Translations under genes and position numbers: made by a program
From: Candidatus Poribacteria bacterium
GTDB taxonomy: Bacteria > Poribacteria > WGA-4E > WGA-3G
Direction of reading: 5' to 3'
Assembly: GCA_965205015.1 (NCBI GenBank)
Contig: OZ242029.1
Span: 4,640,001 to 4,704,000, forward strand
Length of the DNA stretch: 64,000 bases
Shown here: in pieces, positions 20,632 through 60,159 of the stretch
Layout: each line of letters starts with the position of its first letter
Numbering within the stretch: position 1 is the first letter of the stretch
Notes under the pieces: model-generated
Database searches by the model: none
What the model was told of the DNA's origin: nothing
The model's input: the letters and a program-made list of their open reading frames with translations, nothing else

Positions 20632-20663
20632 CTTTTTGTTTTGATGTTAGAGAAATATTAGAT

Positions 20664-20921
20664 TTATTCATAGACAGATGAACGATGCCCAATCCGGGAG
20701 ACTTCAACTGTTTGATAACACTTATCATAAGTATAGATAATTCGGTAGTCACCAGAAGGTAATTTGAATTTTCCTTTGTAGTTGCCTTTCAGTGCTCTAT
20801 GGGGCCATTGATCGCAATTCTCTCGCAGTAATTTAAGTTTACGGCGAATTTGCCTTCGGATTTTGCCATCCAAACGCTCTAAATCCCCTTCAGCAGCAGG
20901 AGTCAGTATCAATTCATACAT
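20664..20921 (-). CDS. RelE/ParE family toxin
   Basis: 85 aa, basic; YELILTPAAEGDL, GDYRIIY, IGHRSSVYE. Confidence 0.88.
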   Translation of the reverse strand: MYELILTPAAEGDLERLDGKIRRQIRRKLKLLRENCDQWPHRALKGNYKGKFKLPSGDYRIIYTYDKCYQTVEVSRIGHRSSVYE

Positions 20922-22088: not shown

Positions 22089-22105
22089 TTACACAACTCC
22101 TTTTA

Positions 22106-23707: not shown

Positions 23708-23737
23708 CAGACTTCTCCTAATTGACTTTCATTCCTC

Positions 23738-23974
23738 CAAGACCTACGCAAATTGCTCAAATATTGGACATTGAGGAGCGAAAAACAGTAATTTCTGTCT
23801 TTTATAGTAAAACCAACAATTAATCAGACACTTTTCCTTTAACAGAAGACTGTTCGTAGGGGCGAGGTCCCCTCGTCCGTCTGTCAAAGTGTGTCTCATT
23901 ATTTTTAGAGGCCACTATAAACCCCCTAAACCCGCTTTATCAGGGGGACTTTAAGATAGAATGCGTAAGTCCTA
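23738..23974. repeat. nested MITE: outer GACCTACGCA...TGCGTAAGTCCTA, inner TTATAGT...ACTATAA (23802-23920), REP hairpin (23856-23878)
   Basis: three levels of inverted repeats visible directly. Confidence 0.6.
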
Positions 23975-24051
23975 TCCTCAGTTTTCTTGGTACTTTAGTA
24001 GTCGTTTGTTTAAGGCACCACCAAACCAGTCTGAGGGATATATTCAAAAGT

Positions 24052-24080
24052 AGTATACGAGATTTAAATGGATTTGTCAA
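24052..24080 (-). promoter_or_regulatory. sigma70 promoter for the ATPase-antitoxin-relE-res unit
   Basis: TTGACA-17nt-TATACT on the minus strand. Confidence 0.65.
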
Positions 24081-24231
24081 TACCATTAACCATTTCCGAC
24101 AGGGTTATTCAATTTTCCGAAATTTTAGATTTTCGGTTCCCGAGGATCTCTGTAGGAGCGAGTTGTGTTCGCGAGGTCTTGGCGAAAACGCCGAAAAAAC
24201 CTACAATTGAATGACCTTGCCATTTCTGATC

Positions 24232-25854
24232 CTATACGAGATTGTAGGGCATTTGGCGGAAGGTGATACCGTGGTGCTTTAAGGTGGCTTCGGTGAGCTG
24301 GGTCCCGCCGCAATGAATAATCTTCATCCCATCATGCCGTGGTAAACGGCTTATGAGTTCCTCAGTGAGGATATCGTCGCTGTTGAGCAGATAAACACCG
24401 ATACCGTCCGCGCTGCCTAAAAAGGCGCGTTGGCGTTTTTCATTGGTAGTGCAAGAACTATACGCTGGCCGATCTCCTTCTACAAGGGATAGCGCGATGT
24501 CCACCGCCATCGGGGTTCCCGTTTCCTTGAAAAAGAGTAACTGTGCCATCTCACTAAACGGAATTTCCTGTTTTTCTGAGAAGGTTTCGCCGACGTGATA
24601 ATAGGAGAAGGTGCCTCCGGTCCCAAATACATTCTGTAGTCTACCCTTCTGCTCATAGGTGTAGCCTTCACTGACACGTTCAAGACGGACAGCCGTAATT
24701 TCACGGGCTATTTTCGGCTCTACCTCAACCAAAATGAAACGCCGACTACCGCCATCCTCACGGTTTTGTTCCATAACCGCGTGTGCCGTTGTACCACTGC
24801 CAGCGAAAGAGTCAAGGATAATGGCATCTTTACTGCGTAGCAATTCCAGCAAAAACTTAATAAATTTTATGGGCTTAGGTTGGGGAAAAACACCCCCTTC
24901 ACCGAATATATCACGAAGTTCACTTGTTCCTTCTTTATTGAACCCTACGATTTCTGGTGAGAGGAATACATCTGGTGGTTGTCCTTCTTGTACCTCAGAG
25001 AGATAGCGTTTTGTCCGCGGTTCGTTCCCAGAAAAATCAATGCGACCTTCGCGTTCCATGCTACGTAGTGTATCTTGCGAATAACTTGGATAACGTCCCG
25101 AAGGGGGAGACCATACAACTCCATTTTCAAAGGTGAACGTGTATGGTGTGTAATAGTTTCGGGCACTGAGTGGATCAAGTTTATACTTACCTCTACCATC
25201 ATTGTCGTCATGAGGATATTTCGTTGATTTATCAGTAATGTAACGAATATACCGACTTTTGTCTTCACCAAACCAAGATTTCTCTTTGGCATAAACCAAG
25301 GTGTAGTCAGCATTGTGATTAAAATCTTTACTGGAGTTACGCACGGTGTGCATTGCTCTTCTTGTGAGAATTGCAAAAAAGTTCTTTTCTCCGAAAATCT
25401 CATCCATTAGCATTCGTAAATGATGCACTTCATTATCATCAATTGAGATAAAGATCACCCCGTCCTCTCGAAGGAGTTGATGAAGGAGGCAGAGGCGGGG
25501 GTACATCATACAGAGCCATTTATCATGTCGAGAGAGATCTTCAGAGAGTTTGCCAACAGTTTTTCCGAGCCATTTCCGGATGGTTGGGTTGTTGACATTA
25601 TCGTTGTAAATCCAATTTTCGTTGCCTGTATTATAAGGCGGATCAATGTAGATGCATTTGACTCTACCAGCATAATAAGGTAGGAGTGCTTTGAGAGCGA
25701 AGAGGTTATCGCCTTCAATAAGCAGATTACCGGTGCCGAGCGGCTCGTTCTCGGCACCTAAGGAGTGATCAGGGTTGTGCGTGAGCGTGTGTATCGGCAC
25801 CTCATCGTGGTGGTTGATGACGGCTTCTTTTCCGATCCAGTTTAGTGTTGGCAT
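24232..25854 (-). CDS. mod: type III R-M adenine DNA methyltransferase Mod
   Basis: LIEGDNL, IYIDPPYNTG, HDKWLCMMYPRL, ISIDDNE, PKP, DSFAGSGTT. Confidence 0.92.
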   Translation of the reverse strand: MPTLNWIGKEAVINHHDEVPIHTLTHNPDHSLGAENEPLGTGNLLIEGDNLFALKALLPYYAGRVKCIYIDPPYNTGNENWIYNDNVNNPTIRKWLGKTVGKLSEDLSRHDKWLCMMYPRLCLLHQLLREDGVIFISIDDNEVHHLRMLMDEIFGEKNFFAILTRRAMHTVRNSSKDFNHNADYTLVYAKEKSWFGEDKSRYIRYITDKSTKYPHDDNDGRGKYKLDPLSARNYYTPYTFTFENGVVWSPPSGRYPSYSQDTLRSMEREGRIDFSGNEPRTKRYLSEVQEGQPPDVFLSPEIVGFNKEGTSELRDIFGEGGVFPQPKPIKFIKFLLELLRSKDAIILDSFAGSGTTAHAVMEQNREDGGSRRFILVEVEPKIAREITAVRLERVSEGYTYEQKGRLQNVFGTGGTFSYYHVGETFSEKQEIPFSEMAQLLFFKETGTPMAVDIALSLVEGDRPAYSSCTTNEKRQRAFLGSADGIGVYLLNSDDILTEELISRLPRHDGMKIIHCGGTQLTEATLKHHGITFRQMPYNLV

Positions 25855-26090: not shown

Positions 26091-27533
26091 CTAAGTTTTT
26101 ATGAGGACTGTTGGAACATAAGCATTTGGTGAAGTCCACTCATAACATTGAATTTTCCCTATGGTATTCAGGCGATGTCCTAGGAAAAGGGCAAACTGTG
26201 CAGGTCCTGCGAAGAAAAGATGGATTTTTTTTGCTTGTGATTTGCTAACAAATTCTTGAATCATTGATTTTGCTTTTTGCACCGCTCGATTTGTTTGAGC
26301 ATCGGATTGGAGAACCATATCACTATACAAGTAAAGTTGTCTGCCATGGAAATGCTCCATTTGCAAGTACTGTTTTACTTCTTCATTGGCAGTGTTTTTC
26401 AAGATAGAAATTCCCACTGCTATTTCATCTGTTAATTCTCCTTCCGTAGACTGCTGCCAATGATAATCTGGTGTATCTTCGTTTGCATGGCTGTTAGTCC
26501 ACCAAACTTCATCTCTAACTTCCATACCAATCGCAAAACCAGAGACTGCGGAAAAGATTGAGCCAATGGCAATAGACGCGGATAATCTACGATGTCCACT
26601 CAAGTAAATACGTCGCTCTCGATTTGTTGAAACTATCCAGTCCTTCGTCCGGCAGAGTTCGCCAATGACCTTCTCGCTCCATTCTTCTGGTGGAGGAAAG
26701 TGACGTTCAGAACCACCAAAAAAACGCGTCCAGTTAAACTGGAGACAACCGTCGGGTACTTTATTGAGACTTTCATCGTACAAGGTGTGGATTCTGATAG
26801 TAGATTCAGGTCTATCTTCTTCTGGCACTTCCTGCCAAATTGCTTTTTCCAGCTCAGGTCTATAGATAGGCTGGTTCTTTCGGGATGAAATCAATTCCAC
26901 TAAGCATGAGTACGCGTCACTACTTATTTTCACAGGAAAATTCTCAAAATTTGGAAAATGATTTAACAGAACTTCCCTGAAAAGTTCTCGAGGAAAATCT
27001 TCGGCATCGGTCAAATCAATTTTAAAGTGTACTTTTGAAAACAGAAAGTCAGCCATCTCTTTTGATTTACCATGTCTTTTCACTCTATCGACAAAATCAT
27101 TATATGATGTGTCTTGTATCTGTTTTGACCCATTATAAAAAGGAAAGGCATCTCGAATTCGGTCCAAAGCGTTTGTAATCGGTTTTAACCCGCCGGAAAT
27201 TGATGTACAAGCCAACACAAACCGTTGATAGGAATCTGGAGCGTGCTTGTCCTTTTCCCAAAAATTTTCTACTTCTTCCCAAAATTCTGTGGGCTGTAGA
27301 AGATGGTTCTTATACTCAACGAACTCGCAAGTCAAGCCGACATTAGGAATGAAAAACTTTGCTTCAACATCACCGAGAGATTCACGAATCATCTCGGTGA
27401 ATCCATCTTCCGCGAGCCAACTTGGTATTTGAGCGGTAATTAAGTTGGCTTGGTACCTGAAACCACCTTCTGCGATATCACCACCAGTGGCTTGAGATGC
27501 TAACAAAGACCCGCTACTGTGTTTCTGGCTCAA
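26091..27533 (-). CDS. cap4: CBASS effector: Cap4-like PD-(D/E)xK endonuclease plus C-terminal SAVED domain
   Basis: GGDIAEGGFRYQ, GDVE...FVEYK; SAVED tail IHLFFAGPAQFALFLGHRLN...QCYE..Y; TTG start with GGAG RBS overlaps cap3 TGA (ORF is open to 27560). Confidence 0.85.
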   Translation of the reverse strand: MSQKHSSGSLLASQATGGDIAEGGFRYQANLITAQIPSWLAEDGFTEMIRESLGDVEAKFFIPNVGLTCEFVEYKNHLLQPTEFWEEVENFWEKDKHAPDSYQRFVLACTSISGGLKPITNALDRIRDAFPFYNGSKQIQDTSYNDFVDRVKRHGKSKEMADFLFSKVHFKIDLTDAEDFPRELFREVLLNHFPNFENFPVKISSDAYSCLVELISSRKNQPIYRPELEKAIWQEVPEEDRPESTIRIHTLYDESLNKVPDGCLQFNWTRFFGGSERHFPPPEEWSEKVIGELCRTKDWIVSTNRERRIYLSGHRRLSASIAIGSIFSAVSGFAIGMEVRDEVWWTNSHANEDTPDYHWQQSTEGELTDEIAVGISILKNTANEEVKQYLQMEHFHGRQLYLYSDMVLQSDAQTNRAVQKAKSMIQEFVSKSQAKKIHLFFAGPAQFALFLGHRLNTIGKIQCYEWTSPNAYVPTVLIKT

Positions 27534-28000
27534 ATTATTTTCTCCGTAATTAGTTGGCATTTGAAAAATTTACCATCTTTGAGAAAAATTGTTACTGTTC
27601 CTTCAATTTTCTGTTCACCTTTAAGTTGCACAATAAGCAAGATAACAAAATTCGCACCAGTATCAGGATCAGTTACAATTTCCTGCATTGACTGAATATC
27701 CTTCTGACTCGGCACTAGCGGAAATGAAGGATGTGAATGCCACTCTCCAAGATAGTTAAATTTTCCATAGTTATATCCCGTCCGTTTAAAGAATCCCTTC
27801 AATGGTTTAACAATATCTACCACTAAGCGGACAAAAAACGCAACGCTGCCAAACTGTTCCTGAATAGTCAAATCAACAATACAGAATTCCGATTCGGCAA
27901 TATGTTCTCCCATAAGGACACCACCGATTTCCTGATTACCAGCTCTTTCGAGAGCAGGGATAAGTTTCTTTTGGATGTCAGTCGGTAGATGAATTTTCAT
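27530..28000 (-). CDS. cap3: CBASS Cap3 JAB/MPN isopeptidase
   Basis: EIGGVLMG, YLGEWHSHP...PSQKD. Confidence 0.9.
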   Translation of the reverse strand: MKIHLPTDIQKKLIPALERAGNQEIGGVLMGEHIAESEFCIVDLTIQEQFGSVAFFVRLVVDIVKPLKGFFKRTGYNYGKFNYLGEWHSHPSFPLVPSQKDIQSMQEIVTDPDTGANFVILLIVQLKGEQKIEGTVTIFLKDGKFFKCQLITEKII

Positions 28001-29723
28001 TTTTCTGCTTCAGAATCAGTTGTGCTATGAAGTCGCGGTTTTCATTGATTTTATCCTCTGAAAATTCTGATTCAGTGAAGGCAGATTGGACTTCTGGAAG
28101 ATTTATGGGAATGGTGTGGAACGGCTGATCAAAAATCCAGCCTCGACTGAGTCCAATCAAATATAGAGAATAAGGAAAATCTGATGGTTCACGTTCAATT
28201 AAGATATCCAGTGCCATTCGAGTGGCATTTGCCGCGATGAGAGTAACATCCGCATCACTCGCCACAATAGTTTCTCCATCACTGTTAATTGTCGTATAAT
28301 CGACAGTTTCTTGTATTTCTGGTAGTTCTAGTTTTTCAAGATATTTGTGAAAAGCAGCACGGGTTATTTGCGGATCTGGATCCTCGTTAGGACGGAATCG
28401 GGCTATCATTCCGCCAATGCCTCCAGCGTAGATTTTAAGCCAAATTATGGGTTTTACCTGCTGGCTTGCGACAGTTGACAATTGATTAAGAGTACAGGGG
28501 TCAGCCGTCGCATCAATGATGAGATCACAGGCACCAAGTTGAGAAAGCATACTATCAACAGTCGCAGTGGCTTCTTGTCCCGACAGTTTGACAGGGGAAC
28601 ATTTCACACTAATATCTTGAGCAATAAGTTTTAATTGATGGGCAATTCCATCAATTTTGTGTTGCCCTACGTCTGCCCAATTGAGTTCATGGCGACAGAT
28701 ATTTTCTTCAAGAAACACGTCATCATCAACGAGAAGGAAATTGCGTACCCCAGTTCGTGCAAGAGAAACGGCAATTTTACTGCCAGCCGATCCAAGTCCA
28801 ACAATTCCAACCGTTTTTGTACTAAGATTGATAAACTCTGGTAGAAGGCGAGGGGTTTCTTCTGTGCTATTGATATCCACTTGAGCAAACCGACTCCATT
28901 CTTTTTCATTTGAAGTCAAAAACAAGTGGAGTCCCTCACTGACATCAATGATTAGTGCAAGACAAGTTGATGAAGATTTAAGTTGTGAGACGTCATGATT
29001 TTGTGCTTCAAGAACGTCAAAGGGTGATTCCAATGGTTGAGATTTCAAAACCTCGGCTTCCAAAGTAGTTTTGAAGAAGTGGCCTTCAATTTGACTAGTG
29101 GTTTTTTCTAATTCTGGAAGCAGTGCAGGATGACACCATTTTTCGCCATTGAGAGGAGAAAAACTCGCTATGAAGGCAACTACACTTTTTCGAGAGAGCA
29201 TCACGTTAAACTGGACAGTTCCCGATTTTTTCCTTGGGAGCGATTGTGTATAAGATATAAGAGACGCATCAACAATAAATCGCAAATAGTTAGTTCTCAA
29301 TTCCTGCCCAGGTGTCAGCAAGTGTCTGGAAGGTGCTTCTATTAGTCTTGAATTCTCTTCTGTCTGGCTCTCAATCTCTAGAAGTTTATGGGCACTGATA
29401 AGCATATCAGCACCAGTAATTTCCTCATGCCAGGTGTCAGGTCCCCACTCAAGACAAAGTTCACCGGAACGGTACTGATGTGTTGACCAAGACTGATTTG
29501 ATTCGCGCGGACGTACAGTTGGCGGACTGGCAGGATAATTAGTCGGGTAAAGCATGATTACCGAATAGCAGCGTCCAAGTACTTCAATATCGGCAACGAG
29601 ACCTAATGTAGGGTCACTATCCAATTTCCAGTCTGCTGAGAGCAGCCAGTCCACCTCAGAATGCAATGTGGTGATTGCTTCTCGTTCTTTATCCAATCTC
29701 GCCAAATTTTTCAGGAACCACAT
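27978..29723 (-). CDS. cap2: CBASS Cap2 E2-E1 (ThiF) fusion
   Basis: E2 part YPTNYPASPP...HQYRSGELCL; ThiF part VGLGSAGS, LVDDD, NICRH, IIDATA. Confidence 0.88.
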   Translation of the reverse strand: MWFLKNLARLDKEREAITTLHSEVDWLLSADWKLDSDPTLGLVADIEVLGRCYSVIMLYPTNYPASPPTVRPRESNQSWSTHQYRSGELCLEWGPDTWHEEITGADMLISAHKLLEIESQTEENSRLIEAPSRHLLTPGQELRTNYLRFIVDASLISYTQSLPRKKSGTVQFNVMLSRKSVVAFIASFSPLNGEKWCHPALLPELEKTTSQIEGHFFKTTLEAEVLKSQPLESPFDVLEAQNHDVSQLKSSSTCLALIIDVSEGLHLFLTSNEKEWSRFAQVDINSTEETPRLLPEFINLSTKTVGIVGLGSAGSKIAVSLARTGVRNFLLVDDDVFLEENICRHELNWADVGQHKIDGIAHQLKLIAQDISVKCSPVKLSGQEATATVDSMLSQLGACDLIIDATADPCTLNQLSTVASQQVKPIIWLKIYAGGIGGMIARFRPNEDPDPQITRAAFHKYLEKLELPEIQETVDYTTINSDGETIVASDADVTLIAANATRMALDILIEREPSDFPYSLYLIGLSRGWIFDQPFHTIPINLPEVQSAFTESEFSEDKINENRDFIAQLILKQKNENSSTD

Positions 29724-30718
29724 CAGGCAAATCCTTTAGGTTCTTTCGGAACGATTGGTTCGTTTGGAAAAGTAGGCGATGATAGTGTTCCTGGCGCGGC
29801 CAACAGACTTTCCGACTTTGTTCCTGCTGTTTCACGGAACCGATTACCAAAAATTTTTCTCCATAGCTTTGTCGCTTCCTCTGGGTCAGTCTCGTTCAGA
29901 GCTTTTCGACCAAGCTCGGCATGAGACTCTGCTTTATTATAAAAGCCGATGAACGCATTAACAGTTATGCCATCAGTGACGAAATTACCAGGGACTGCAG
30001 GATCTGGAATATTAGGAACGTTCTCTAAGAGGAAATTAATCTTGTATTTTTCAACAATTTCCTCCAAGGTTTTGACAAATAATTCGCCATAATAGGTTTC
30101 CTCATAGTCCATGCACTCAGCGGTAATACACTCAATAACAAACCCTTTGGGCTTTTTAGAAACTGTTGGATTTTCACGTCGCCACCACTTCCCTAACTTA
30201 ACTAATGGTTTGAAGCGTCCGCCGGCTGTTTCATTGGTTTCGATCGTCCAAGTTGTATGCCCTGGTGGATTGGTTGAGAGCCAACACTCCTGTTTTCTAT
30301 CAGGAATGAGGTACATTTCTCCATCTGGTATAATTGGGACAACGTCCATGTCAGCTTTAGAAGATTCAATACCGACAGACCGCGCCTGTTTGCGGATATT
30401 GGAATACTTTTTTTTCAGGGTTTTGTAGAGCAAGTCGACAACTTCTTTTGGATCATCATAGGAAGTATGGTTTGTCACCACGATAATATCGACATCAGGG
30501 CGATTAGTCTGCCCGTTTTTTGTACGAGGACGAATTGCTGTATCTCGTTTATAGGACCCTGACAGAAAAGTATTCACGTGATATTCTTTGAAGTCTTCAT
30601 CATCTTTAAGAAAATCACGTAATTCAGTGTGAGCGGAAGAGGCGTTACTTTTGGTTGTGGGACTCGGTTCAATGTCACTCAAAAATTCAGTAAACCGGGC
30701 TTGTGGGATTGTTGGCAT
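29723..30718 (-). CDS. cGAS/DncV-like nucleotidyltransferase (CD-NTase)
   Basis: [32 protein letters not shown]; tail KGFA; AGGAG RBS. Confidence 0.92.
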
Positions 30719-30884
30719 GGTTTCTTCTCCTTTGTTAGAAGACCTTATGGAATCAAGTATTCTCCGGGCGAGGATGTCCAAACTGAAATTTGTTTCTGGA
30801 GTGTTGTCTTACGCAAATCAATACCTCTAAAGAGGATAAAACACTGAGATAGGGCAAGATTAAATCACTTAATTATCAAGGCAA

Positions 30885-30945: not shown

Positions 30946-32065
30946 GAGGGTGGTGCATAAATAAAGTTGTGGAGTATCAGGATAATGGGTATGCTTTAAT
31001 GAAACCACCCATATAAGGCATACCCGATGTATTATCCTGACAGAAAAGAGTATATCACATTTTTGTTTTCTTTACTTGATGAGTTTGCTGAGAAGAAACA
31101 AACGCTTCTCAGCAGAGGGAGACCCAAAACGTATTCAGATGCTGCCTTGATCGTCTTTTATGCCATGATGACACTGAAGCAGATAAACACGGCTCGCGGG
31201 CAGCACCGCTGGTTATACACGCATCCACTCATGCTTGAGACGCTACGATTGTGGGTGTGTCCATCGCGTTCGACGCTCTCACGCCGATATAAGCAACTGT
31301 TTCCACTTCTCAGTGAGTTTTGTGAGTTTATCGCCGATTGGGCAGTTTCACACGGATATGGTTTTTCACATACCCGCGTCTATGAAGATAAGAGTTTGTT
31401 CAAGGCACACGGGCGCGTCTGGCACAAGAAGGATCGTGTGAAAAATCATATTCCCAAAGGACTTTGCAATGTCGATAAGGCCGCAAACGGGTCGAAAAGT
31501 GCTTATCACGGATGGGTCTATGGATACGGACTTCATCTGACGACGACGCGACACGGATTTCCCGTGATGTGTGATGTCATGCCTGCCAACGTCAATGAAC
31601 GTAAAGTGCTTGATAAGAAGCAATCTCGTCTGGTGGCTAAAGGCGTGCGGTGTCTTATCGCCGATGCTGGCTATAGAGATAAAAACCGCACCACTGACTT
31701 TGCTAAAAGGCAAGTTCTGCTGGTAACACCTGATATCTGTCTCGAACAAGTAGCCTTGATGTTTGGAGGTATGGATGCTATGGCAATCGCAGTTTTCGAA
31801 GAGGCGAAAGCCTGTCGAAAAACCGCAATTGAACCCGCATTTGACTTACTCAGTAAACTCTTAGCAACCACCGGAGCGCATAAACCTTTGCCCGTCAGCG
31901 GCTTGGCATGTGTGGCTACATTCTTAGGGCTTGGCACCGTAATTTTACAACTCGCAATGTTGATCAATATCGCAATGTTGATCAATATTAGGTGTGGACT
32001 TCCCACACGAAATGTCACGCACATCAAAACCGTTTTTCAGTAAAAAGAATTTATGCACCACCCTC
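30946..32065 (+). mobile_element. insertion sequence (DDE, IS982/IS5-like), 1120 bp
   Basis: 17-bp perfect IR GAGGGTGGTGCATAAAT; 8-bp target duplication ATTTAATT (30938-30945 and 32066-32073). Confidence 0.92.
31027..32043 (+). CDS. DDE transposase
   Basis: PSRSTLSRR, GWVYGYGLHL, ADAGY, RKTAIEP. Confidence 0.88.
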   Translation: MYYPDRKEYITFLFSLLDEFAEKKQTLLSRGRPKTYSDAALIVFYAMMTLKQINTARGQHRWLYTHPLMLETLRLWVCPSRSTLSRRYKQLFPLLSEFCEFIADWAVSHGYGFSHTRVYEDKSLFKAHGRVWHKKDRVKNHIPKGLCNVDKAANGSKSAYHGWVYGYGLHLTTTRHGFPVMCDVMPANVNERKVLDKKQSRLVAKGVRCLIADAGYRDKNRTTDFAKRQVLLVTPDICLEQVALMFGGMDAMAIAVFEEAKACRKTAIEPAFDLLSKLLATTGAHKPLPVSGLACVATFLGLGTVILQLAMLINIAMLINIRCGLPTRNVTHIKTVFQ

Positions 32066-45260: not shown

Positions 45261-47066
45261 ATGCCAACGAATCTTGAAAACATACGGAATTTCTGCATTT
45301 TAGGGCACATCGACCACGGAAAAAGCACACTGAGCGATAGACTCCTCGAGCACACAAACACGCTCGCTGCGCGCGAGATGCGCGAACAGGTGCTGGATTT
45401 GATGGATTTAGAGCGTGAACGCGGTATCACTATTAAAGCAACCGCTGTCAAACTCCATTACCCCGCCGCTGATGGAAACCGCTACGAACTTAATTTGATC
45501 GATACACCCGGACACGTCGATTTCACGTACGAGGTCTCCCGGAGCCTCGCTGCGTGCGAAGGTGCCATTCTCATCGTTGATGCCGCCCAAGGGGTCGAAG
45601 CACAAACCTTAGCGAACGCATATCTCGCGATTGACAATGACCTTGAGATTATCCCCGTCGTCAATAAAATTGATTTACCTACCGCACAACCCGATGAAGC
45701 CAGACGACAGATCGAAGAGGTCATCGGTATCCCTGCTGACGATGCACTCCTCGTGAGCGCGAAAATGGGGACCGGTATCCCCTCAATATTAGAAGCGATT
45801 ATCAACCGAATCCCTGCACCTATCGGCGAACCGGAAGCCCCTTTAAAGGCACTCGTGCTCGACTCCGTCTATAATAACTATCGGGGGGTCATTATGTACA
45901 CGCGTATCTTTGAGGGGAGTGTGAAGATAGGGGAAAAGGTTCAACTCATGGAGACGAAACGTTCCTATGAGGTTGAGGAGGTCGGCATCTTCACACCAGA
46001 AATGCAACCGACCGCTGAACTCCGCACGGGTGCCGTCGGCTACCTCATCGCAGGCATCCGAGAGATCGACAAAGCGAAAATCGGGGATACAATCACGCAT
46101 CATACGAAACCGACAGCAACACCGCTTCCCGGTTATCGAGAGATGAAACCGCTTGTATTCAGCGGTCTCTATCCGGCAGACACAAACCAGTTTCATGCCC
46201 TGCGCGAGGCACTCGATAAACTACGCCTCAACGATTCCTCCTTCAATTTTGAACCTGAGACCTCCGTTGCCCTCGGTTTCGGGTTTCGGTGCGGTTTTCT
46301 CGGCTTGCTTCACATGGAAATTATTCATGAACGCCTCGAGCGGGAATTCGGACTCGCGCTCGTACGAACTGCACCGAGTGTGATGTATCGAGTCCACTTG
46401 AAAACGGGTGGGTACGTGCCGGTCGACAATCCAGCACATCTCCCAGAACCAAATAATATCGAACGAATTGAAGAACCGTATGTCAATATTGACATTATCG
46501 TTCCTCGCGACTATATTGGAAATGCGATGGAACTTTGTCAGAAGCGTCGGGGTATATATAAGCGGATGAACCAATTGGATGCACATCGCGTGCAACTGCT
46601 TTATGAACTCCCGCTCAGCGAAATGTTAATAGATTTCTATCCGAAACTTAAATCGTTGACACGCGGGTACGGTTCGTTAGAATATGATATCGGAGAATAT
46701 AAAACTGAAAAACTCGTCAAATTAGATGTGTTGCTGAACGGGAACCCCGTAGACGCGCTCTCAACGATTCTGCCACAAGACAATGCCGAAACGCGTGGTA
46801 AGGCATTAGTGACCAAATTGAAAGAATTAATTCCGCGCCAAATGTTTGAAGTCCCCGTTCAAGCCGCAATCGGCAACAAGATTGTTGCCCGTGAAACAGT
46901 TCGGGCACTTCGAAAAAATGTTACGGCGAAATGTTACGGCGGTGATGTGACGCGAAAACGGAAATTGCTTGAAAGACAGAAAGAAGGTAAAAAACGTCTC
47001 AAACAGATTGGCAACGTTGATGTGCCACAAGAAGCGTTCACGGCAATGCTTGCAACTGACGATTAA
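45261..47066 (+). CDS. lepA: elongation factor 4
   Basis: [39 protein letters not shown]. Confidence 0.98.
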
Positions 47067-47103
47067 CAGGAGTAGGCACACGCCGTATGCCATAATATTC
47101 ACC

Positions 47104-47907
47104 ATGAACAATAATACACAGAAACACTCTCAGGTAACCGAAGAAAAAAGAATTCGGAAAGCAGCGATTTGTGAACATGCAAAATTCATCATTGTTTTAC
47201 TGATTCTTATGTTCGGTCTCATACGTCCATTTATTGTTGAAGCGTATAGGATTCCATCCGGATCCATGGAAGATACACTTCTCATCGGAGATCAGATTCT
47301 GGTATGCAAGTTTATCTATGGGGTCAAGGTCCCTGGCACGGATATAAAAATTTTTGATTTTCACGAACCCGCACGCGGTGATATCGCCGTTTTTATTCCG
47401 TCCCACGATGAACGACATTTTATTAAGCGCATTGTAGCCGTTGAAGGGGATACCGTTGAAACACGGGACGATACACTTTATGTGAACGGTAAAGCAGTTG
47501 AAGACAAGCACTACACGAAGCATCTGCGGTTCAGCCATTTTAGAAAAGATTTCCCACCCTTCCGGATACCCGAACATCTTCCGACTGGCGAAAGTTATGA
47601 CGACTATACCCTGACCGAAAGTCAATTTAGACGCAAGTACCCTCAAGGAAATCCATTCATTGTGCCAAAAGGGATGGTGTTCGTCATGGGCGATAACCGC
47701 GACCAGAGTAGTGATAGCCGTTTCTGGGGACCCGTTGCTGTAGATGATATCAAAGGACAAGCGTTCATGATTGTGTTTTCGGTTGCCAAGCGTCCGGCGA
47801 AGTTGTGGGAAGTATGGAAGCTGATAGGCAACATTCGGTTTAATCGTATTGGTAAACTTATCCCTTCGGAATCTGATTCGTTCAAGGCAAACTATGGTAG
47901 ATTTTAG
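47104..47907 (+). CDS. lepB: signal peptidase I, paralog 1
   Basis: IPSGSMEDTL, FIKR, GDNRDQSSDSR. Confidence 0.92.
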   Translation: MNNNTQKHSQVTEEKRIRKAAICEHAKFIIVLLILMFGLIRPFIVEAYRIPSGSMEDTLLIGDQILVCKFIYGVKVPGTDIKIFDFHEPARGDIAVFIPSHDERHFIKRIVAVEGDTVETRDDTLYVNGKAVEDKHYTKHLRFSHFRKDFPPFRIPEHLPTGESYDDYTLTESQFRRKYPQGNPFIVPKGMVFVMGDNRDQSSDSRFWGPVAVDDIKGQAFMIVFSVAKRPAKLWEVWKLIGNIRFNRIGKLIPSESDSFKANYGRF

Positions 47908-47986: not shown

Positions 47987-49341
47987 CTGATATTTATCAC
48001 AGTTATCATGAAGGCAGTAATAACAAAGAGAAAGCAGGTATAGCAAGGTGAAAATGCGATGGTTTTGAAAAGGGTGCTTGATTTTTAGCACATGAAATGG
48101 CATCCTAAGGATTCAGAGAACCACCTTTGAGTCATTAGGAGGCCATCGCATGCGTGATCATCTTATCAAATCCACCCTCTTTTTTCAAGACCTTCTTTGT
48201 TCTTCCTTTCAGTGTATGAAGCGTCAAGTCGTTGAGACACTGCTGCTGCTCTGCGTTTGTCATCTCTTTGGACTTTACAACCCGAATCAAGTTGCCGATG
48301 CCTTGGAACTTCCGAAAGCCGGTCTTTATCGGCACCTCGGTTCTCTGAGTTTCTATCACTCGAAGTCTTTGAATCTACGACTCGGGTGTGCGATGGCAGT
48401 CGATTTCATCAAAGACGCCGAAAGCAAGAGTGCTTCAACGCAATCGCGGCGGCGGATTACCGTCAGTGTTGATGATACGAATCTACCTCGCTACGGAGAG
48501 ACGCTCTCTTATTGTTCAAAGTGGTGGTCGAAAAAACACAAGACCTCTATCTGGTGTCAGAACGTCTTAGGGATCACACTAAAAGTTGGCGATCGCGTGA
48601 TTCCATTACAGACGCGTCTTGTCAGTAAACAAGGACGTGGCAATACAGATAAACCGAGTCTTGCGATAGCGATGCTCAAAGATGTCTTAGATTTCTTTGA
48701 TACCCAAGGCGTTGATCTAAGAAAGTATCCGATTACCTTCGATTCGTGGTATGGCAGTCGTAAACTCGTTGAGGCCTTATCGGAGTTAGGGTTTGCTTGC
48801 ATACTCGTTCACGGAAAAAACAACTATGTCATGACCATAGGCGATACAACTGCGAAACTTTCGGCTCATAAAAAGCACATAGAGTTGCGTGAAGATCAAT
48901 GGGGGTGTGATAAACCCGTCTGTCGTCTCAAAGCGGAAAGCCCAACTTTTGGCGAGTGTGTCGTCATCTTCTTTGTGGATCGGAAAAAGATACGCACCCT
49001 CTTAATCTTTGGTAAACCGCTACGCACCTGCGAGGCACTGAGGATTTGGTCGCAACACCATGGTATTGAACAGTATTGGCGGTATTTGAAATCGAGTTTG
49101 CACATCTCCGCGATGAGTTTGGAAAGCAGAGAAGGTGCGTATGTGAGTCTTGGCATAAAAGCCATGAGCTACCTGATGTTGCTTCAAGTTAGCATCTCAG
49201 AGCGACGCACATTTCATCAAATACAGCTTCAACTCACCGGAGAAAGACAGACGCTCATGGATTTCATGACGCATTTTCATAAACTTAATCCTAAAGAACC
49301 TTGATAACTATTGCTTTAGGACAACTTTTGAGAAATATCAG
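47987..49341 (+). mobile_element. insertion sequence (IS4 superfamily, IS701/ISH3-like), 1355 bp
   Basis: IR CTGATATTT / AAATATCAG; 5-bp target duplication TTGGT (47982-47986 and 49342-49346). Confidence 0.88.
48150..49304 (+). CDS. DDE transposase
   Basis: SVDDT, FDSWYG, HHGIEQYWRYLK. Confidence 0.85.
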   Translation: MRDHLIKSTLFFQDLLCSSFQCMKRQVVETLLLLCVCHLFGLYNPNQVADALELPKAGLYRHLGSLSFYHSKSLNLRLGCAMAVDFIKDAESKSASTQSRRRITVSVDDTNLPRYGETLSYCSKWWSKKHKTSIWCQNVLGITLKVGDRVIPLQTRLVSKQGRGNTDKPSLAIAMLKDVLDFFDTQGVDLRKYPITFDSWYGSRKLVEALSELGFACILVHGKNNYVMTIGDTTAKLSAHKKHIELREDQWGCDKPVCRLKAESPTFGECVVIFFVDRKKIRTLLIFGKPLRTCEALRIWSQHHGIEQYWRYLKSSLHISAMSLESREGAYVSLGIKAMSYLMLLQVSISERRTFHQIQLQLTGERQTLMDFMTHFHKLNPKEP

Positions 49342-49482: not shown

Positions 49483-50250
49483 ATGAATAACAACGATACA
49501 CAGTTATCTAAATGGCAAAAATTTCGGAAGACGATTGTATGGGAATATACCCAAGTCATCGTCGTCGCCCTCATTCTCGTTTTCGGATTCATACGTCCTT
49601 TTGTTGTTGAGGCATTCAAAATCCCCTCCGGCTCAATGGAAGATACGCTTCTTATCGGAGACCGGATTTTGGTATGCAAATTTATCTACGGCATCAAAAT
49701 CCCCGGCACAGACATCAAGGTTCTTGATTTCCATAAGCCTGCCCGAGGCGATGTTTTCGTTTTCATCCCACCCCACGATCGGAAACGAAATTTCATCAAA
49801 CGCATCGTAGCCATTGAAGGGGATACCATCGAAACGAACGGCGACACACTCTATGTAAACGGTGAAGCGGTCGACGATCAGCATTACACGAAATACATGA
49901 ACTTCAGCCATTTTAGAAAAGATTTTCCACCGTTCCGGGAACCAGAATATCTCCCCACAGGTGAAAGTTATGACGACTACACCTTGACTGAAAGCCAGTT
50001 TAGGCACAAGTATCCCGAAGGAAATCCATTCACGGTGCCCAAAGGCAGGGTGTTTGCCATGGGTGATAATCGCGATCAGAGCAGTGATAGCCGTCGGTGG
50101 GGTCCCGTAGATGTAAGCGATATCAAAGGACAAGCATTTATGGTGTACTGGTCATCTGATTCTCGTCCAGCGAAGTTGTGGGAAGTGTGGAAGATCGTCG
50201 GTAACGTCCGCTTCAAGCGAATCGGCAAACTCATCCATACTCAGCCTTAA
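49483..50250 (+). CDS. lepB: signal peptidase I, paralog 2
   Basis: IPSGSMEDTL, FIKR, GDNRDQSSDSR. Confidence 0.93.
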   Translation: MNNNDTQLSKWQKFRKTIVWEYTQVIVVALILVFGFIRPFVVEAFKIPSGSMEDTLLIGDRILVCKFIYGIKIPGTDIKVLDFHKPARGDVFVFIPPHDRKRNFIKRIVAIEGDTIETNGDTLYVNGEAVDDQHYTKYMNFSHFRKDFPPFREPEYLPTGESYDDYTLTESQFRHKYPEGNPFTVPKGRVFAMGDNRDQSSDSRRWGPVDVSDIKGQAFMVYWSSDSRPAKLWEVWKIVGNVRFKRIGKLIHTQP

Positions 50251-50252
50251 TA

Positions 50253-50390
50253 GTTTTCAGTTATCGGTTATCAGTTGTCAGTTAAGAGACATTCTGTAAC
50301 CATTGGAAAAAAGTTTGGAGTACTCCAAGAAGCGGTGGATTATACCCGAAGTCCTTTTAGCTGATAACGGACGACGGACGACGGACAACC
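50253..50390. repeat. heptamer tandem repeats in inverted arrangement
   Basis: TTTTCAG-TTATCGG-TTATCAG-TTGTCAG ... CTGATAA-CGGACGA-CGGACGA-CGGACAA. Confidence 0.6.
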
Positions 50391-54326: not shown

Positions 54327-56054
54327 ATGAAAGGACTCACTTTCTTCAAAGCAACAAACTTTTGTTTACAGATAAAGCGCGTCAGTTTTGTTATTTTCGT
54401 CGTAAGTTTAGCACTTGCTGCGACACCGAGTCCCATCACAGCCGGAACCACACCGGATATTCAACCTGTTACGAACGAGATGTTACTCTCATCACAAGAT
54501 GACTCCGAGAGCTGGCTGATGTACGGACGGGATTACAGAAGTTGGCGATATAGTCAACTCACACAGGTTAACACTGAAAACGTTAAAAAACTCGTCCCGA
54601 AATGGGCGTTTCAAATTGGAACACCCTTCGATAAGTTTGAATGTACCCCACTGGTTGTCGACGGTGTGATGTTCATCACCACCCCTTATAGCACCATCTA
54701 TGCCGTGGACGCAAGAACCGGTAAGGAAATATGGCGGTACGATTATGAACTTCCCGACGATTTGGCGATCTGCTGTGGTATGGTGAACCGCGGGGCTGCT
54801 ATCTTGGGCGATAAAATCTTTTGGGTAACGCTTGACGCACATCTCCTTGCCCTCGATGCGAAAACCGGCAGGGTCCTCTGGGACAGAGTGGTCGGGGATC
54901 TGACGAACGCTGAATCCCTCACAGTCGCCCCGTTAGTCGTCAAAGACAAAGTGATTGTCGGCATATCAGGCGCAGAATACGGCATCCGAGGCTACATCGA
55001 CGCGTATTACGCCGACACCGGTGAACAGGCATGGCGATTTTACACCGTCCCTTCAAAAGACGAACCCGGCGGCGACACATGGGAAGGCGATTCATGGATG
55101 ACAGGTGGCGGCTCCGCCTGGGTCACAGGTTCCTACGACCCCGAATTGAATCTCGTCTACTGGGGAACGGGTAACCCGGCACCCGATTGGAACGGTGCCG
55201 TCCGGAGAGGCGACAACCTCTATACCGACTGTATCGTTGCGTTGGATGCCGATACCGGAAAACTCAAATGGTACTTTCAAGCCACACCCCACGATCTATG
55301 GGATTGGGACGGCGTGAGTGAACCGGTACTGATCGATATGGAGATAGATGGCGCGCCAGTCAAAGCACTGATGCAAGCGAATCGCAACGGCTATTTCTAT
55401 GTGCTTGATAGAACCAACGGAAAATTTCTATACGCAAGCACTTATTGCGAACAGAACTGGTCGGCGGGCCTCGATGAAAACGGACGTCCTACCGTCCTAC
55501 CCGGCGTGTCCACCTCAGAAGAAGGCACGATTCGTGTGTGTCCCGGCGTTGAAGGCGGCAAGAACTGGCCCCCGTCAGCCTATAACCCGCTCACAAATTA
55601 CCTCTATGTTCCTTCGTTGGAACTCTGCGGTTCCTTTCATCAAGGGCGCGTTTTCTACGTGAAAGGTCTCCCCTACCTCGGCAGCGGTATGACAGCCGAA
55701 AAAGACGAAGACGGTGACATGATGATGTGGGGACATATCAGCGCGATTGATGTTTCCACGGGTGAGATTAAATGGCGACACAAAACGAACTTCCCACAAT
55801 GGGGTGGATGTCTCACAACGGCAGGCGGTCTCGTTTTTGCGGGTGATTTAGAGGGCAGATTCATGGCACTCTCGGCAGAAACCGGCGAAGTGCTTTGGGA
55901 TTTCCAGACTGGATCCGGGGTTCTCGCCCCCCCAATTACCTATCAACTCGACGGCGTTCAATACGTTGTGATAGCATCGGGTGCTGTGAAATATGCCGAA
56001 GTTAATGCGCGCCAAGGCGGAACCCTCTTTGTGTTCGCGCTTTTTGATGAATAG
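54327..56054 (+). CDS. PQQ-dependent alcohol/methanol-family dehydrogenase
   Basis: signal peptide; vicinal CC (ICCGMVNRG), GAEYG, GTGNP, HDLWDWDG, W-motif propeller. Confidence 0.92.
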   Translation: MKGLTFFKATNFCLQIKRVSFVIFVVSLALAATPSPITAGTTPDIQPVTNEMLLSSQDDSESWLMYGRDYRSWRYSQLTQVNTENVKKLVPKWAFQIGTPFDKFECTPLVVDGVMFITTPYSTIYAVDARTGKEIWRYDYELPDDLAICCGMVNRGAAILGDKIFWVTLDAHLLALDAKTGRVLWDRVVGDLTNAESLTVAPLVVKDKVIVGISGAEYGIRGYIDAYYADTGEQAWRFYTVPSKDEPGGDTWEGDSWMTGGGSAWVTGSYDPELNLVYWGTGNPAPDWNGAVRRGDNLYTDCIVALDADTGKLKWYFQATPHDLWDWDGVSEPVLIDMEIDGAPVKALMQANRNGYFYVLDRTNGKFLYASTYCEQNWSAGLDENGRPTVLPGVSTSEEGTIRVCPGVEGGKNWPPSAYNPLTNYLYVPSLELCGSFHQGRVFYVKGLPYLGSGMTAEKDEDGDMMMWGHISAIDVSTGEIKWRHKTNFPQWGGCLTTAGGLVFAGDLEGRFMALSAETGEVLWDFQTGSGVLAPPITYQLDGVQYVVIASGAVKYAEVNARQGGTLFVFALFDE

Positions 56055-56104
56055 TTGTTAGTTTTCGGTTTTCGGTTGTCAGTTAAGAGAGGCTTTTGTT
56101 AATC

Positions 56105-56520
56105 GTGATAGACCACATGCTAAAGCATGTGGCTTCTACAATCGTTATGCAGAAGCTCTCGTGCGATCAACGACTGTTGCTCTCTTACGAAAGACTTATA
56201 CAGCCTACTGCAACAGTCGCTACCCCGACTGCGACACCGAAGTGTCCTTGCGAAAAGTTTGTAATGAGTCATGCCTTCTGGCAAACACGTTGGGCCTTGA
56301 GTCCGCTATCCGTGTAATACTCATGTCGAGCTGCTATTTAGGATAGGTAATCGTTTTAGAGCTTTACACTACAGGAACGCTATCACGAGCTTAGCAACCA
56401 AAGCCTCTGTAGCAACCTTACACTCTGAAAGTATTATAGCAGATTCAAAACCTTATTTCAAGGAGAAACAGCGTCTACATCTCCACGCGAAAGCATGGAG
56501 TTTTGACGCTGAAGATTATG
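56105..56520 (-). mobile_element. non-autonomous IS200/IS605-type element with no tnpA or tnpB, 416 bp
   Basis: minus strand: TTTAT then left-end hairpin CAGCGTC..TCCATGC-TTTC-GCGTGGA..GACGCTG; right end GAAGCCACATGC-TTTA-GCATGTGGTCTATCAC; no TSD; removing it restores a flanking hairpin. Confidence 0.72.
56433..56461 (-). promoter_or_regulatory. promoter inside the element driving an ORF-less RNA
   Basis: TTGAAA-17nt-TATAAT with TG extension. Confidence 0.6.
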
Positions 56521-56561
56521 ATAAACCTCTTTAACCGAAAATGAATAAATAGGAGGGACCC

Positions 56562-57437
56562 GTGAAACACCAAATCCCTTTGTGGATCGCGCTTCTCATA
56601 TTGCCTATTCTGATCCTACACAACGCAAGTGCCGATAGTGTCTTGGAAGAAATTCGGGCAAAGGGTGTCTTAACGGTCTGTATGGACATCCGAAATCTGC
56701 CTTACTCCAATGCGGATCCGGAACTTCCTGGATTATATGTTGAGATAGCACACTTACTGGCAGCGGAGCTCGGTGTTAAGTTGGAACTCCACTGGCTTAA
56801 CACCCTCCGTGATAGTCTACTGGCTGACATGATACGCGGACATTGCGACTGTGTAATCGGAGTGCCCATTGAGGAGCGCGCCATGAGTGAAGCAATTCAA
56901 TTGGGGAAAAACGTTGATTTCTCTACGCCCTTCTACGGGACGGGATACGTATTGGTAAAACAGAAAGATAACCAAGCGTCCCCGAAAACGCTGGAGGACA
57001 TCAAGTTAGAAACCATTGGAACAGAAGCGGGTTCTATCGCAAGTGATGTCCTTCGACAGATGGGGTATAATCGTCGCGTTTATCGCTCACAAATTGCCGT
57101 CTTAGACGCTCTCAAGAAAGGGCAAATTGCTTACGGATATGTCTGGTCAAACATTGGGTGGCTGATTGAAAAGGGTTCCCGAATTCAGCAGCCAGAACAG
57201 ACGGACACCGTTTACCCTGAATTAGAGATTGTCAAAGAATACATTCCTGAAGTTCGTCTTCGTTGGAATATCGCTATTGCTTTTAGCAAAGATAAGCCCA
57301 CACGAGAAACACGTGAACTTCGAGACGTTGTTAACACAATTATCGAACAGAAATGGAGCGAAGAAAAACTCAAAGACCTCTGTGAAAAGTATTATTTGCC
57401 TTACTTCGCTCCGTTTCAGGAGGATGAACAGAAATGA
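56562..57437 (+). CDS. MoxJ/XoxJ-like periplasmic substrate-binding protein
   Basis: LTVCMD..NLPYS, STPFYGTGYV, YVW; context beside a PQQ dehydrogenase. Confidence 0.75.
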   Translation: MKHQIPLWIALLILPILILHNASADSVLEEIRAKGVLTVCMDIRNLPYSNADPELPGLYVEIAHLLAAELGVKLELHWLNTLRDSLLADMIRGHCDCVIGVPIEERAMSEAIQLGKNVDFSTPFYGTGYVLVKQKDNQASPKTLEDIKLETIGTEAGSIASDVLRQMGYNRRVYRSQIAVLDALKKGQIAYGYVWSNIGWLIEKGSRIQQPEQTDTVYPELEIVKEYIPEVRLRWNIAIAFSKDKPTRETRELRDVVNTIIEQKWSEEKLKDLCEKYYLPYFAPFQEDEQK

Positions 57438-58360: not shown

Positions 58361-58486
58361 CCGTTAGCAGTCAGGCCGCTTCGCTCTCGGCTTTCAGCTA
58401 AGAGGTTTTCGATGAACTGAGGGAAACCGATGGTTTCCGAGGACTGGCTGCTATTCTGTCATTTAACCGCAAGGAAAATTAAAAAA

Positions 58487-59290
58487 ATGATCCGTGTAAT
58501 TATTAATGGGGCATGTGGCCGTATGGGACGGCTCATCATCCGAGGCGTTTCCGAACAAGCCGATATGGAAATCGTTGGCGCGATTGAATTCCCAGAACAC
58601 CCACAGATCGGGAGTGATGCCGGTGTTGTTGCCGGTATTGGAGAAATAGGGGTAGCGATTACAGGGAGCCTTGAGGATGTCCTTGAAAACGCAGATGTTG
58701 TCATCGAATTCTCGAAACCTGAGGCGACCTTACAACACCTCCGCCAAGTCGTCAACGCCGACAAAGCGATGATAATCGCAACGACCGGCTATGACCCCGA
58801 TGAACTTGCGACTCTCAGGGAACTCGCCTCACAGATTCGCTGCGTCATGGCACCGAACATGAGTCTCGGTGTCAATGTGATGATCCAAGCATTGGAATTA
58901 ATCGCTAAAGCCCTCGGGGACGATTACGATATTGAGGTGATAGAGGCACACCACAACCACAAAGCAGATTCACCGAGCGGCACAGCACTCCGCTTAGCGG
59001 AGACAGTCGCTACGGCATTGGGTCGCGACTTAGATGAGGTGGGTGTTTACGGCAGGCACGGCATCGTTGGGGCGCGACCGAAGAAGCAGATCGGCATCCA
59101 CGCCGTTCGAGGTGGTGATATCGCCGGCGATCATACAGTACTGTTCGCAACCGAAGGTGAGCAATTAAGCGTCGTTCACCGCGCCCACAGTCCAGAGGCG
59201 TTCGCCAAAGGTGCGATTCGCGCAGCGAGATGGGTCATCAACGCGCCTAAAGGGTTACACGATGTCAGCGAAGTCCTGTTTCAGAAATAG
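58487..59290 (+). CDS. dapB: 4-hydroxy-tetrahydrodipicolinate reductase, copy 1
   Basis: GACGRMG, ATTG, APNMSLG, EAHHNHKADSPSGTA. Confidence 0.95.
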   Translation: MIRVIINGACGRMGRLIIRGVSEQADMEIVGAIEFPEHPQIGSDAGVVAGIGEIGVAITGSLEDVLENADVVIEFSKPEATLQHLRQVVNADKAMIIATTGYDPDELATLRELASQIRCVMAPNMSLGVNVMIQALELIAKALGDDYDIEVIEAHHNHKADSPSGTALRLAETVATALGRDLDEVGVYGRHGIVGARPKKQIGIHAVRGGDIAGDHTVLFATEGEQLSVVHRAHSPEAFAKGAIRAARWVINAPKGLHDVSEVLFQK

Positions 59291-59361: not shown

Positions 59362-60159
59362 ATGATTCGTGCAGTTATCACCGGCGTTTGCGGTCGTATG
59401 GGGCGTTGCATCACGCGCGGCATTGCCCAGCAACCCGATATGCGACTCGTGGGGGCTGTCCAATATCCTTCACACCCACAAATCGGGAACGATGCGGGTG
59501 TTGTGGCTGGCATTGGTGAGATTGGCGTCGCCATTACAGGCCAACTTGACGACGTGCTTCATCGTTCAGATGTTGTCATCGAATTTTCAAAACCTGAAGC
59601 AACCCTGGACCACCTCCAACAAGTCGTCGATACAGATAAAGCCATGGTTCTCGGAACAACTGGTTTTACCGCCGACGAATTCGCGACCCTCAAAGTTCAC
59701 GCATCAAGGATCCGCTGTGTCATGGCACCGAACATGAGTCTCGGTGTCAATGTGATGCTCCAAGCATTAGAATTAATTGCCAAAGCCCTCGGAAATGATT
59801 ATAATATTGAAGTGATAGAAGCGCACCACAATCACAAAGCAGATTCACCGAGCGGTACAGCCTTACGTGTAGCGGAAACGCTCACCACAGCACTTGAACA
59901 AAATTTAGATGAGGTGGGTGTCCACGGTCGCCACGGCATTATGGGCGCGAGACCGAAGAAACAGATCGGCATTCATGCAGTCCGAGGTGGCGATATTGCT
60001 GGTGATCACACAGTATTGTTCGCAACAGAGGGTGAGCAATTAAGCATTGTCCACCGCGCCCACAGTCCAGAGGCGTTCGCCAAAGGCGCGATTCGCGCAG
60101 CGAAATGGATTATCGACGCACCTAAAGGGTTACACGATGTCAGCGAAGTCCTGTTTTAA
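59362..60159 (+). CDS. dapB: 4-hydroxy-tetrahydrodipicolinate reductase, copy 2
   Basis: GVCGRMG, GTTG, EAHHNHKADSPSGTA. Confidence 0.95.
   Translation: MIRAVITGVCGRMGRCITRGIAQQPDMRLVGAVQYPSHPQIGNDAGVVAGIGEIGVAITGQLDDVLHRSDVVIEFSKPEATLDHLQQVVDTDKAMVLGTTGFTADEFATLKVHASRIRCVMAPNMSLGVNVMLQALELIAKALGNDYNIEVIEAHHNHKADSPSGTALRVAETLTTALEQNLDEVGVHGRHGIMGARPKKQIGIHAVRGGDIAGDHTVLFATEGEQLSIVHRAHSPEAFAKGAIRAAKWIIDAPKGLHDVSEVLF

Follow-up and report, generated by a model that had tools for sequence, protein, structure and literature searches.

In a 64,000-nt stretch of Candidatus Poribacteria DNA (contig OZ242029.1; referred to as the window, whose numbering is used throughout), we found an insertion element of the IS605 family that carries no gene and whose minus strand reads as a two-part RNA. 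On sequence comparison with related elements, the 3' ~130 nt of this RNA is an omegaRNA scaffold homologous to the scaffolds found in intact tnpB and tnpA-tnpB elements bounded by the same ends, and the 5' ~190 nt, here called the leader, is a separate covarying RNA domain, not tnpB debris, that is common to gene-less elements of three IS605 subfamilies. The leader is the part that appears to be new, within an otherwise known type of guide-only element. We consider it probable that the element is transcribed into an RNA of ~340 nt in which the leader may protect the 3' omegaRNA, and that a TnpB acting in trans loads this RNA and cuts the empty donor site.

The element lies between two host genes, and the following features define its position.

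54327..56054, plus strand: host PQQ-dependent dehydrogenase gene (PF01011), convergent with the element promoter
56105..56520, minus strand: ORF-less non-autonomous IS605-family (PATE-like) element of 416 nt, defined by empty orthologous sites and by 42 full copies with common ends and 40 distinct 12-nt flanks
56521..56524, minus strand: TTAT target/TAM motif (TTTAT in the window copy), outside the element, preceding 42/42 parsed copies
56562..57437, plus strand: host solute-binding protein gene (PF00497) on the opposite flank of the element

Orthologues of the solute-binding protein gene, with 75-93% identity, are present in 23 Candidatus Poribacteria genomes, and the element is absent from all 23 of these loci; the intergenic gap is 18-218 nt at the 22 loci that were parsed, compared to 507 nt in the window. 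When positions 56105-56520 are removed, the window aligns to locus L013 without gaps (28/33 identical, read by eye), and the ends of the element are thus TTAT/C and TCAC/G, without target duplication. Insertion is 3' of a fixed motif of 4 to 5 nt. The initial annotation had placed it 3' of TTTAT, and these bases are present (56525-56521), but the motif conserved in the family is TTAT, the fifth base being T in 25 copies, A in 10, G in 6, and C in 1 (n=42). The insertion site is a palindromic intergenic repeat, a further copy of which lies at 50250-50289. Window positions 56051-56104 and 56521-56551 belong to this repeat, which is common in Poribacteria and is split by the element, so the guide could resemble other copies of the repeat. 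In 0.89 Mb of DNA, mostly from other genomes, no site matched TTAT plus guide when up to 2 mismatches were allowed, and the 64-kb window contains no second copy of the element. In four sequencing runs of unrecorded kind no joint across the element was found, a result that in contigs cannot show absence, and loose ends at 56525 in those runs suggest other copies in the same samples.

The left end and the promoter occupy the first part of the element, as follows.

56469..56511, minus strand: left-end subterminal DNA hairpin, a predicted TnpA site, with covariation and of a type common to tnpA elements (L139, L145, L147)
56433..56461, minus strand: sigma-70-type promoter with extended -10, predicted start at ~56426, in the same layout as upstream of tnpB

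Subterminal hairpins are present at both ends, with z scores against shuffles of -4.4 for the left end and -3.3 for the right end. Both had been described in the initial annotation, the right-end hairpin as ending in TCAC, and both hold up, TCAC being the terminus of 34/42 copies. The TTGAAA-17-TATAAT promoter with TG that it had also read is found at 56461-56433 with a score of 11/12, and a promoter scoring at least 10/12 is conserved in 36/42 copies, as is the TG (36/42); at a loose threshold, the region contains 2 promoter-like sites compared to 2.3 expected by chance. No terminator on the minus strand was detected by a scan from the element to 55808, so it is possible, judging from sequence, that read-through enters the dehydrogenase gene, 50 nt away, in the antisense direction.

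DNA of the element matched 52/150 sampled Poribacteria genomes. A parser that accepted TTAT, TTAA, or TTAC as the preceding motif was applied to the window and loci L024-L098 and recovered 42 ORF-less full copies of 401-476 nt, and 26 loci were left unparsed, including relics and some full copies that were added by hand afterwards. All 42 copies follow TTAT, 34 end in TCAC and 8 in TCAA, and the flanks are distinct in 40/42, a few copies being orthologous insertions. The window element has no sense ORF; it contains a 73-aa antisense frame (56096-56317), and the longest open frames across the 42 copies span 43-102 codons. Thus, the assignment to an ORF-less IS200/IS605 element and the expectation of further copies were both correct: the element lacks a protein-coding gene, has verified ends, and occurs in many copies at unrelated sites. 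Beyond Poribacteria, exact-pattern searches, which are insensitive, gave 4 matches in metagenomes, all attributable to chance (tRNA, coding DNA), none in plasmids, and 0 in viral scans, where a looser scan gave 86 matches, none of the 80 fetched fitting the model. An IStron was also considered and rejected on the basis of no match to an intron family, where a group I intron core would be expected between the left end and the genes, and of only ~190 nt of available length.

The 3' part of the element contains the following features.

56105..56232, minus strand: TnpB omegaRNA scaffold, made up of stem 1 (loop 56225-56220), stems 2-3, the right-end hairpin (56131-56114), and terminal CTATCAC
56224-56220 with 56111-56107, minus strand: omegaRNA pseudoknot
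56089..56104, minus strand: predicted 16-nt guide from the flank, matching the empty donor joint, as expected from TnpB biology (available text of PMC10097598); the flank is variable among copies

The RNA folds at z -3.7 against shuffles. In an alignment of scaffolds from 36 ORF-less and 6 tnpB-coding copies, 88.7% of cells are paired, compared to 73.9% in shuffles (0/500 shuffles) and 38-57% when the structure is slid, where the shuffle statistics, like those for the leader, ignore relatedness and both structures were derived from the same sequences that were tested. Two-sided change is seen at 25/39 scaffold pairs. The stem-1 loop pairs with element positions -7 to -3 in 206/210 cells (0/2000 shuffles), and both sides of this pseudoknot changed together in 8 copies; this is essentially one split, 34 versus 8, and its two-sided changes are probably few events. 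Since the conserved stem-1 loop is ~110 nt inside the element, we infer that selection acts on the RNA and not on a TnpA DNA hairpin. As in a TnpB omegaRNA, the right end of the element is also the end of the scaffold, a variable flank takes the place of the guide, the stem-1 loop pairs with the terminal nucleotides, and the scaffold has a homologue in that belonging to a cognate TnpB that is catalytically intact.

These results support the flank-derived guide and the covariation that had been anticipated, and they restrict the omegaRNA-like RNA of the initial annotation to the 3' ~130 nt, where homology, covariation, and the pseudoknot all apply, whereas the 5' ~190 nt forms a conserved domain of its own. 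Several individual pairings had also been proposed, and every motif described in the initial annotation is present at the position given. The hairpin GACACTTCGGTGTC is present at 56246-56233. The 10-bp helix formed by CGACTGTTGC (56219-56210) and GCAACAGTCG (56180-56171) is present in the window, but pairing across the family is 67.9%, compared to 67.9% in shuffles (42 sequences). Likewise, the complementarity of TCGTGATAG (56388-56380) to CTATCACGA (56111-56103) exists in the window copy but shows no own-copy preference across copies. Neither pairing beats controls across copies, and we rejected both as family features. Across the family, the terminal CTATC pairs with the stem-1 loop, and the TCGTGATAG bulge has its conserved pairing with an internal linker and not with the right end.

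When compared to the ISDra2 TnpB omegaRNA (available text of PMC10097598), the window scaffold has the same pairing of the stem-1 loop with the nucleotides just before the guide and a terminal hairpin with a UUUA loop, and its length is 128 nt versus 116 nt in ISDra2. It differs in having no overlapping tnpB and in following TTAT, where ISDra2 has TTGAT. In Rfam, the window copy gave no credible match, HgcC and sot0042 included, and sister copies hit HgcC (RF00062) and sot0042 (RF02656) weakly (E 5e-4 to 0.3, all below the gathering score). This similarity is restricted to the 3' part of the sister copies and leaves the leader uncovered; the feature in common with HgcC is the right-end tetraloop (PMC4615843, available text). 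An IscB omegaRNA (HEARO) was rejected, with no HEARO match on either strand and with the promoter and pseudoknot on the TnpB strand.

The same ends enclose tnpB elements of ~1,470 nt, and one element, L139, is autonomous and carries tnpA and tnpB between TTAT/CTATCAC ends, so the autonomous parent that had been expected exists. The Poribacteria tnpB and tnpA-tnpB elements (L026, L088, L139) have TTAT, the left-end hairpin type, the promoter position, the CTATCAC end, and a homologous scaffold in common with the window element, and they differ from it in encoding a TnpB of ~403 aa; their stem 2-3 region is also longer, and their leader is not the same. The cognate proteins have Pfam TnpB domains, match ISDra2 TnpB with E 2e-45, and contain D, E, D and CxxC zinc-finger motifs; the catalytic D, E, D motifs are present in L026, L028, and L088. 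Of the two partners originally suggested, TnpB or TldR, TnpB is therefore the one that fits, and a TldR guide RNA was rejected because the cognate proteins have not lost the RuvC catalytic residues. Full-length cognate TnpB (E below 1e-200) is found in 20/23 genomes with a full ORF-less copy and in 22/127 others, a contrast that was compiled by hand and is inflated by phylogenetic relatedness; it was not found in the remaining 3/23 (G060, G110, G091). Y1 transposase domains, not all of them cognate, are present in 136/150 genomes, and TnpA with matching ends occurs in the phylum, these counts referring to the sample, which does not include the genome of the window itself. A search of 10 tnpA/tnpB loci against Rfam gave nothing credible.

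The tnpB elements (for example, L026, L083, L084, L087-L089, L154-L164) have a different structured leader, occupying ~110 nt before the start codon. It contains a hypervariable, fully compensated 7-bp pseudoknot (109/112 pairs in 16 copies), followed by a tandem repeat of the closing strand. Its topology is like that of a permuted pistol ribozyme, with a pseudoknot at a P2-P3 junction, then GC, and a GU junction, but purine-32/G33 of the pistol ribozyme (PMC6154101, available text) is absent, and there is no Rfam hit.

The leader of the gene-less elements has the following parts.

56341..56426, minus strand: domain I, with a closing stem, invariant GGUU (56417-56414), the 7-bp P2 (56413-56407 / 56374-56368), a hairpin, and invariant GUAAA (56367-56363)
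56386-56376 with 56356-56342, minus strand: predicted leader pseudoknot between a bulge and a linker, within domain I
56233..56340, minus strand: domain II, with a stem (56324-56319 / 56269-56264), nested internal loops and a hairpin, and then the small hairpin at 56246-56233

P2, which lies between GGUU and GUAAA, is paired in 230/231 cells from 33 copies when the best register is chosen by the script; when 35 copies are aligned independently with MAFFT, the paired fraction is 98.6%, and 8/8 pairs show two-sided change. In those 35 copies, the pseudoknot is 83-87% paired, again with two-sided change at 8/8 pairs, and the mean bulge/linker duplex energy is -7.8 for a copy's own linker compared to -4.3 for other linkers. 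Overall, the leader is 89.5% paired versus 68.5% when shuffled. Compensatory changes in domain II were read from alignments and partly from a covariation scan and were not counted against controls. A sequence-only model of the leader domain finds it in 55/150 genomes, with up to 15 hits per genome. Among 29 further hits that were inspected, 3 are truncated, and the other 26 lead, uninterrupted by any ORF, to a right end at a distance of 302-359 nt; the leader is confined to gene-less elements. The leader-bearing elements have three end/scaffold types (TTAT/CTATCAC, TTAT/ATGTCAA, and TTAA/..TGAC), and leader subtypes and scaffold types combine in mixed ways, so the leader behaves as a module.

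This conservation bears on whether the element is merely a passive relic of a tnpB deletion, spread by TnpA and without an RNA function. Simple internal deletions of tnpB do exist (L084, 792 nt), and decayed pieces of the element are found at host loci (L037-L040, L052, L092). We nevertheless regard a relic as very unlikely, because the leader resembles neither tnpB coding sequence nor the leaders of tnpB parents (no detectable similarity and no significant HMM hit, which also led us to reject an origin from the tnpB leader), covaries strongly, and persists across divergent Poribacteria, while the promoter and pseudoknot are retained.

The leader could also have an activity of its own, such as binding a second protein or acting as a ribozyme or regulatory switch, which would make the element a two-domain RNA cassette. 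Invariant unpaired GGUU and GUAAA amid freely covarying stems are what one would typically see at a binding or catalytic site, the domain is joined to three unrelated scaffold/end types, and a UU...UAAA junction occurs also in the different pseudoknotted leader that tnpB-coding parents carry. The similarity to that leader is undetectable, however, no partner ORF was seen beside any leader copy, and the leader had no Rfam match in 21 searched regions, so we think such an activity unlikely. The raiA motif RNA (RF03072; PMC12968392, available text) was rejected as its identity, with 0/5 leader-rich genomes hit by the model at E up to 10. In general outline, both are compact, pseudoknotted RNAs that measure ~200 nt and contain an asymmetric, A-rich internal loop; the leader differs in forming its pseudoknot from a bulge, not an apical loop, and in having no stem that closes the whole RNA.

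A fragment 88-90% identical to the window leader precedes a host gene in 4/30 of the closest orthologous loci and is best read as a relic; since only these 4/30 orthologues of the downstream gene carry it, we rejected the leader as a captured host riboswitch. Leader or left-end-plus-promoter fragments lie before host genes at L037-L040 (the spacer from uvrA to a membrane-protein gene), L052, L072, L092, and L043, and such fragments are possibly co-opted promoters or 5' UTRs, clade-limited as at the L037 locus.

In the window copy, the leader pseudoknot is weak (-5.4 kcal/mol, with 48/200 shuffles equally good), and the leader can instead pair with the element end plus 17 nt of the guide at -21.9 kcal/mol; the global fold is at -114.6, compared to -103.0 with local pairs only. 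The weak pseudoknot and the strong competing pairing mean that this copy may be misfolded, and the modeled pairing may silence it. Such pairing raises the question of whether the RNA is a decoy or inhibitor, the orphan scaffold titrating TnpB or the leader pairing with the end and guide, so that DNA breaks are limited. The promoter is near consensus and leader domain hits are numerous within genomes, the window copy can bury a pseudoknot strand and the guide, and a cis-inhibitory mRNA region is reported for AmaTnpB (available text of PMC10278001). Among 32 other copies, however, the sequestering pairing is not a family trait, with -9.2 kcal/mol for own and -9.3 kcal/mol for non-own partners, and the pseudoknot and junction, both intact, are features that an active guide requires. 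We therefore judge a decoy or inhibitor to be quite unlikely.

The reading that we favor remains that of a guide RNA used in trans, which was the central idea of the initial annotation and which we hold, from the comparisons above, to be likely for this element; the idea itself is already known, having been published for PATEs and standalone omegaRNAs. In the available text of Meers et al. (10.1101/2023.03.14.532601), TnpA excises single-stranded elements and inserts them beside a short motif, the empty donor joint is cleaved by TnpB carrying an omegaRNA from the right end, recombination restores the element, and PATEs encode omegaRNAs that are acted on in trans. The available texts of other reports describe trimming by TnpB of the 5' end of its own RNA (PMC10278001), a transcribed PATE (PMC4615843), and standalone omegaRNAs that work in trans, with a biological role stated as unknown (PMC10691335). 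Applied to the element described here, a TnpA produced elsewhere likely moves it, and its promoter is predicted to yield one RNA of ~340 nt, which the structured leader would keep folded and stable without a translated ORF. TnpB from another locus would load this RNA and trim its 5' end and, with the flank-derived guide, would cut TTAT plus guide at the empty donor site, where recombination would then restore the element.

Like PATEs and standalone omegaRNAs of IS200/IS605, the window element has no ORF, has TnpA-type ends, and keeps an omegaRNA for which use in trans is expected. It adds the covarying leader of ~190 nt between promoter and scaffold, found in three subfamilies, and the available text of the PATE accounts contains no such leader. 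Within the available text of the literature covered, we found no description of a dedicated, covarying leader that gene-less elements from several IS605 subfamilies have in common. That the leader serves stability or folding, as a substitute for the tnpB mRNA that is translated and normally lies ahead of the scaffold, is the least certain step; it is plausible, although we stop slightly short of favoring it. More tentatively, the leader may be a new functional RNA module that makes IS605 ends into trans-guide cassettes, swapped onto the omegaRNAs of at least three TnpB subfamilies and raising guide lifetime or loading or recruiting a second factor, a proposal that we judge less likely than not; if true, the leader would be a guide-RNA enhancer that is both natural and portable, and would define a new class of structured RNA. 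The guide-only elements examined here are not bare deletions, in that a conserved RNA domain stands in the place of tnpB across a phylum, which hints at the requirements of an orphan guide in the competition for TnpB. Natural test pairs are available within the set, which comprises an intact TTAT-type TnpB, dozens of guides, and leaders that differ by compensatory changes. Should the leader stabilize guides, it could serve compact genome editors; should its role be another, it would be a new structured RNA for which an alignment already exists.

We also observed other ORF-less IS605 elements (L085:190-686, also L053; L081, L082, and L095), which have a different internal RNA cargo before the omegaRNA; L085 sits head-to-head inside a left end of the window type. 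Elsewhere in the window, two DDE-type transposase-like ORFs (31027-32043 and 48150-49304) are unrelated to the element. From translations only, a four-gene CBASS-type-like cluster (SAVED-like, JAB, E2-E1, and nucleotidyltransferase) is found at 26091-30781 on the minus strand, and type III restriction-modification-like helicase and methyltransferase genes flank an AAA ATPase at 18241-25854, also on the minus strand. The window further contains duplicated signal peptidase I genes (46969-47907 and 49483-50250) and tandem dihydrodipicolinate reductase-like genes (58430-59290 and 59362-60159).
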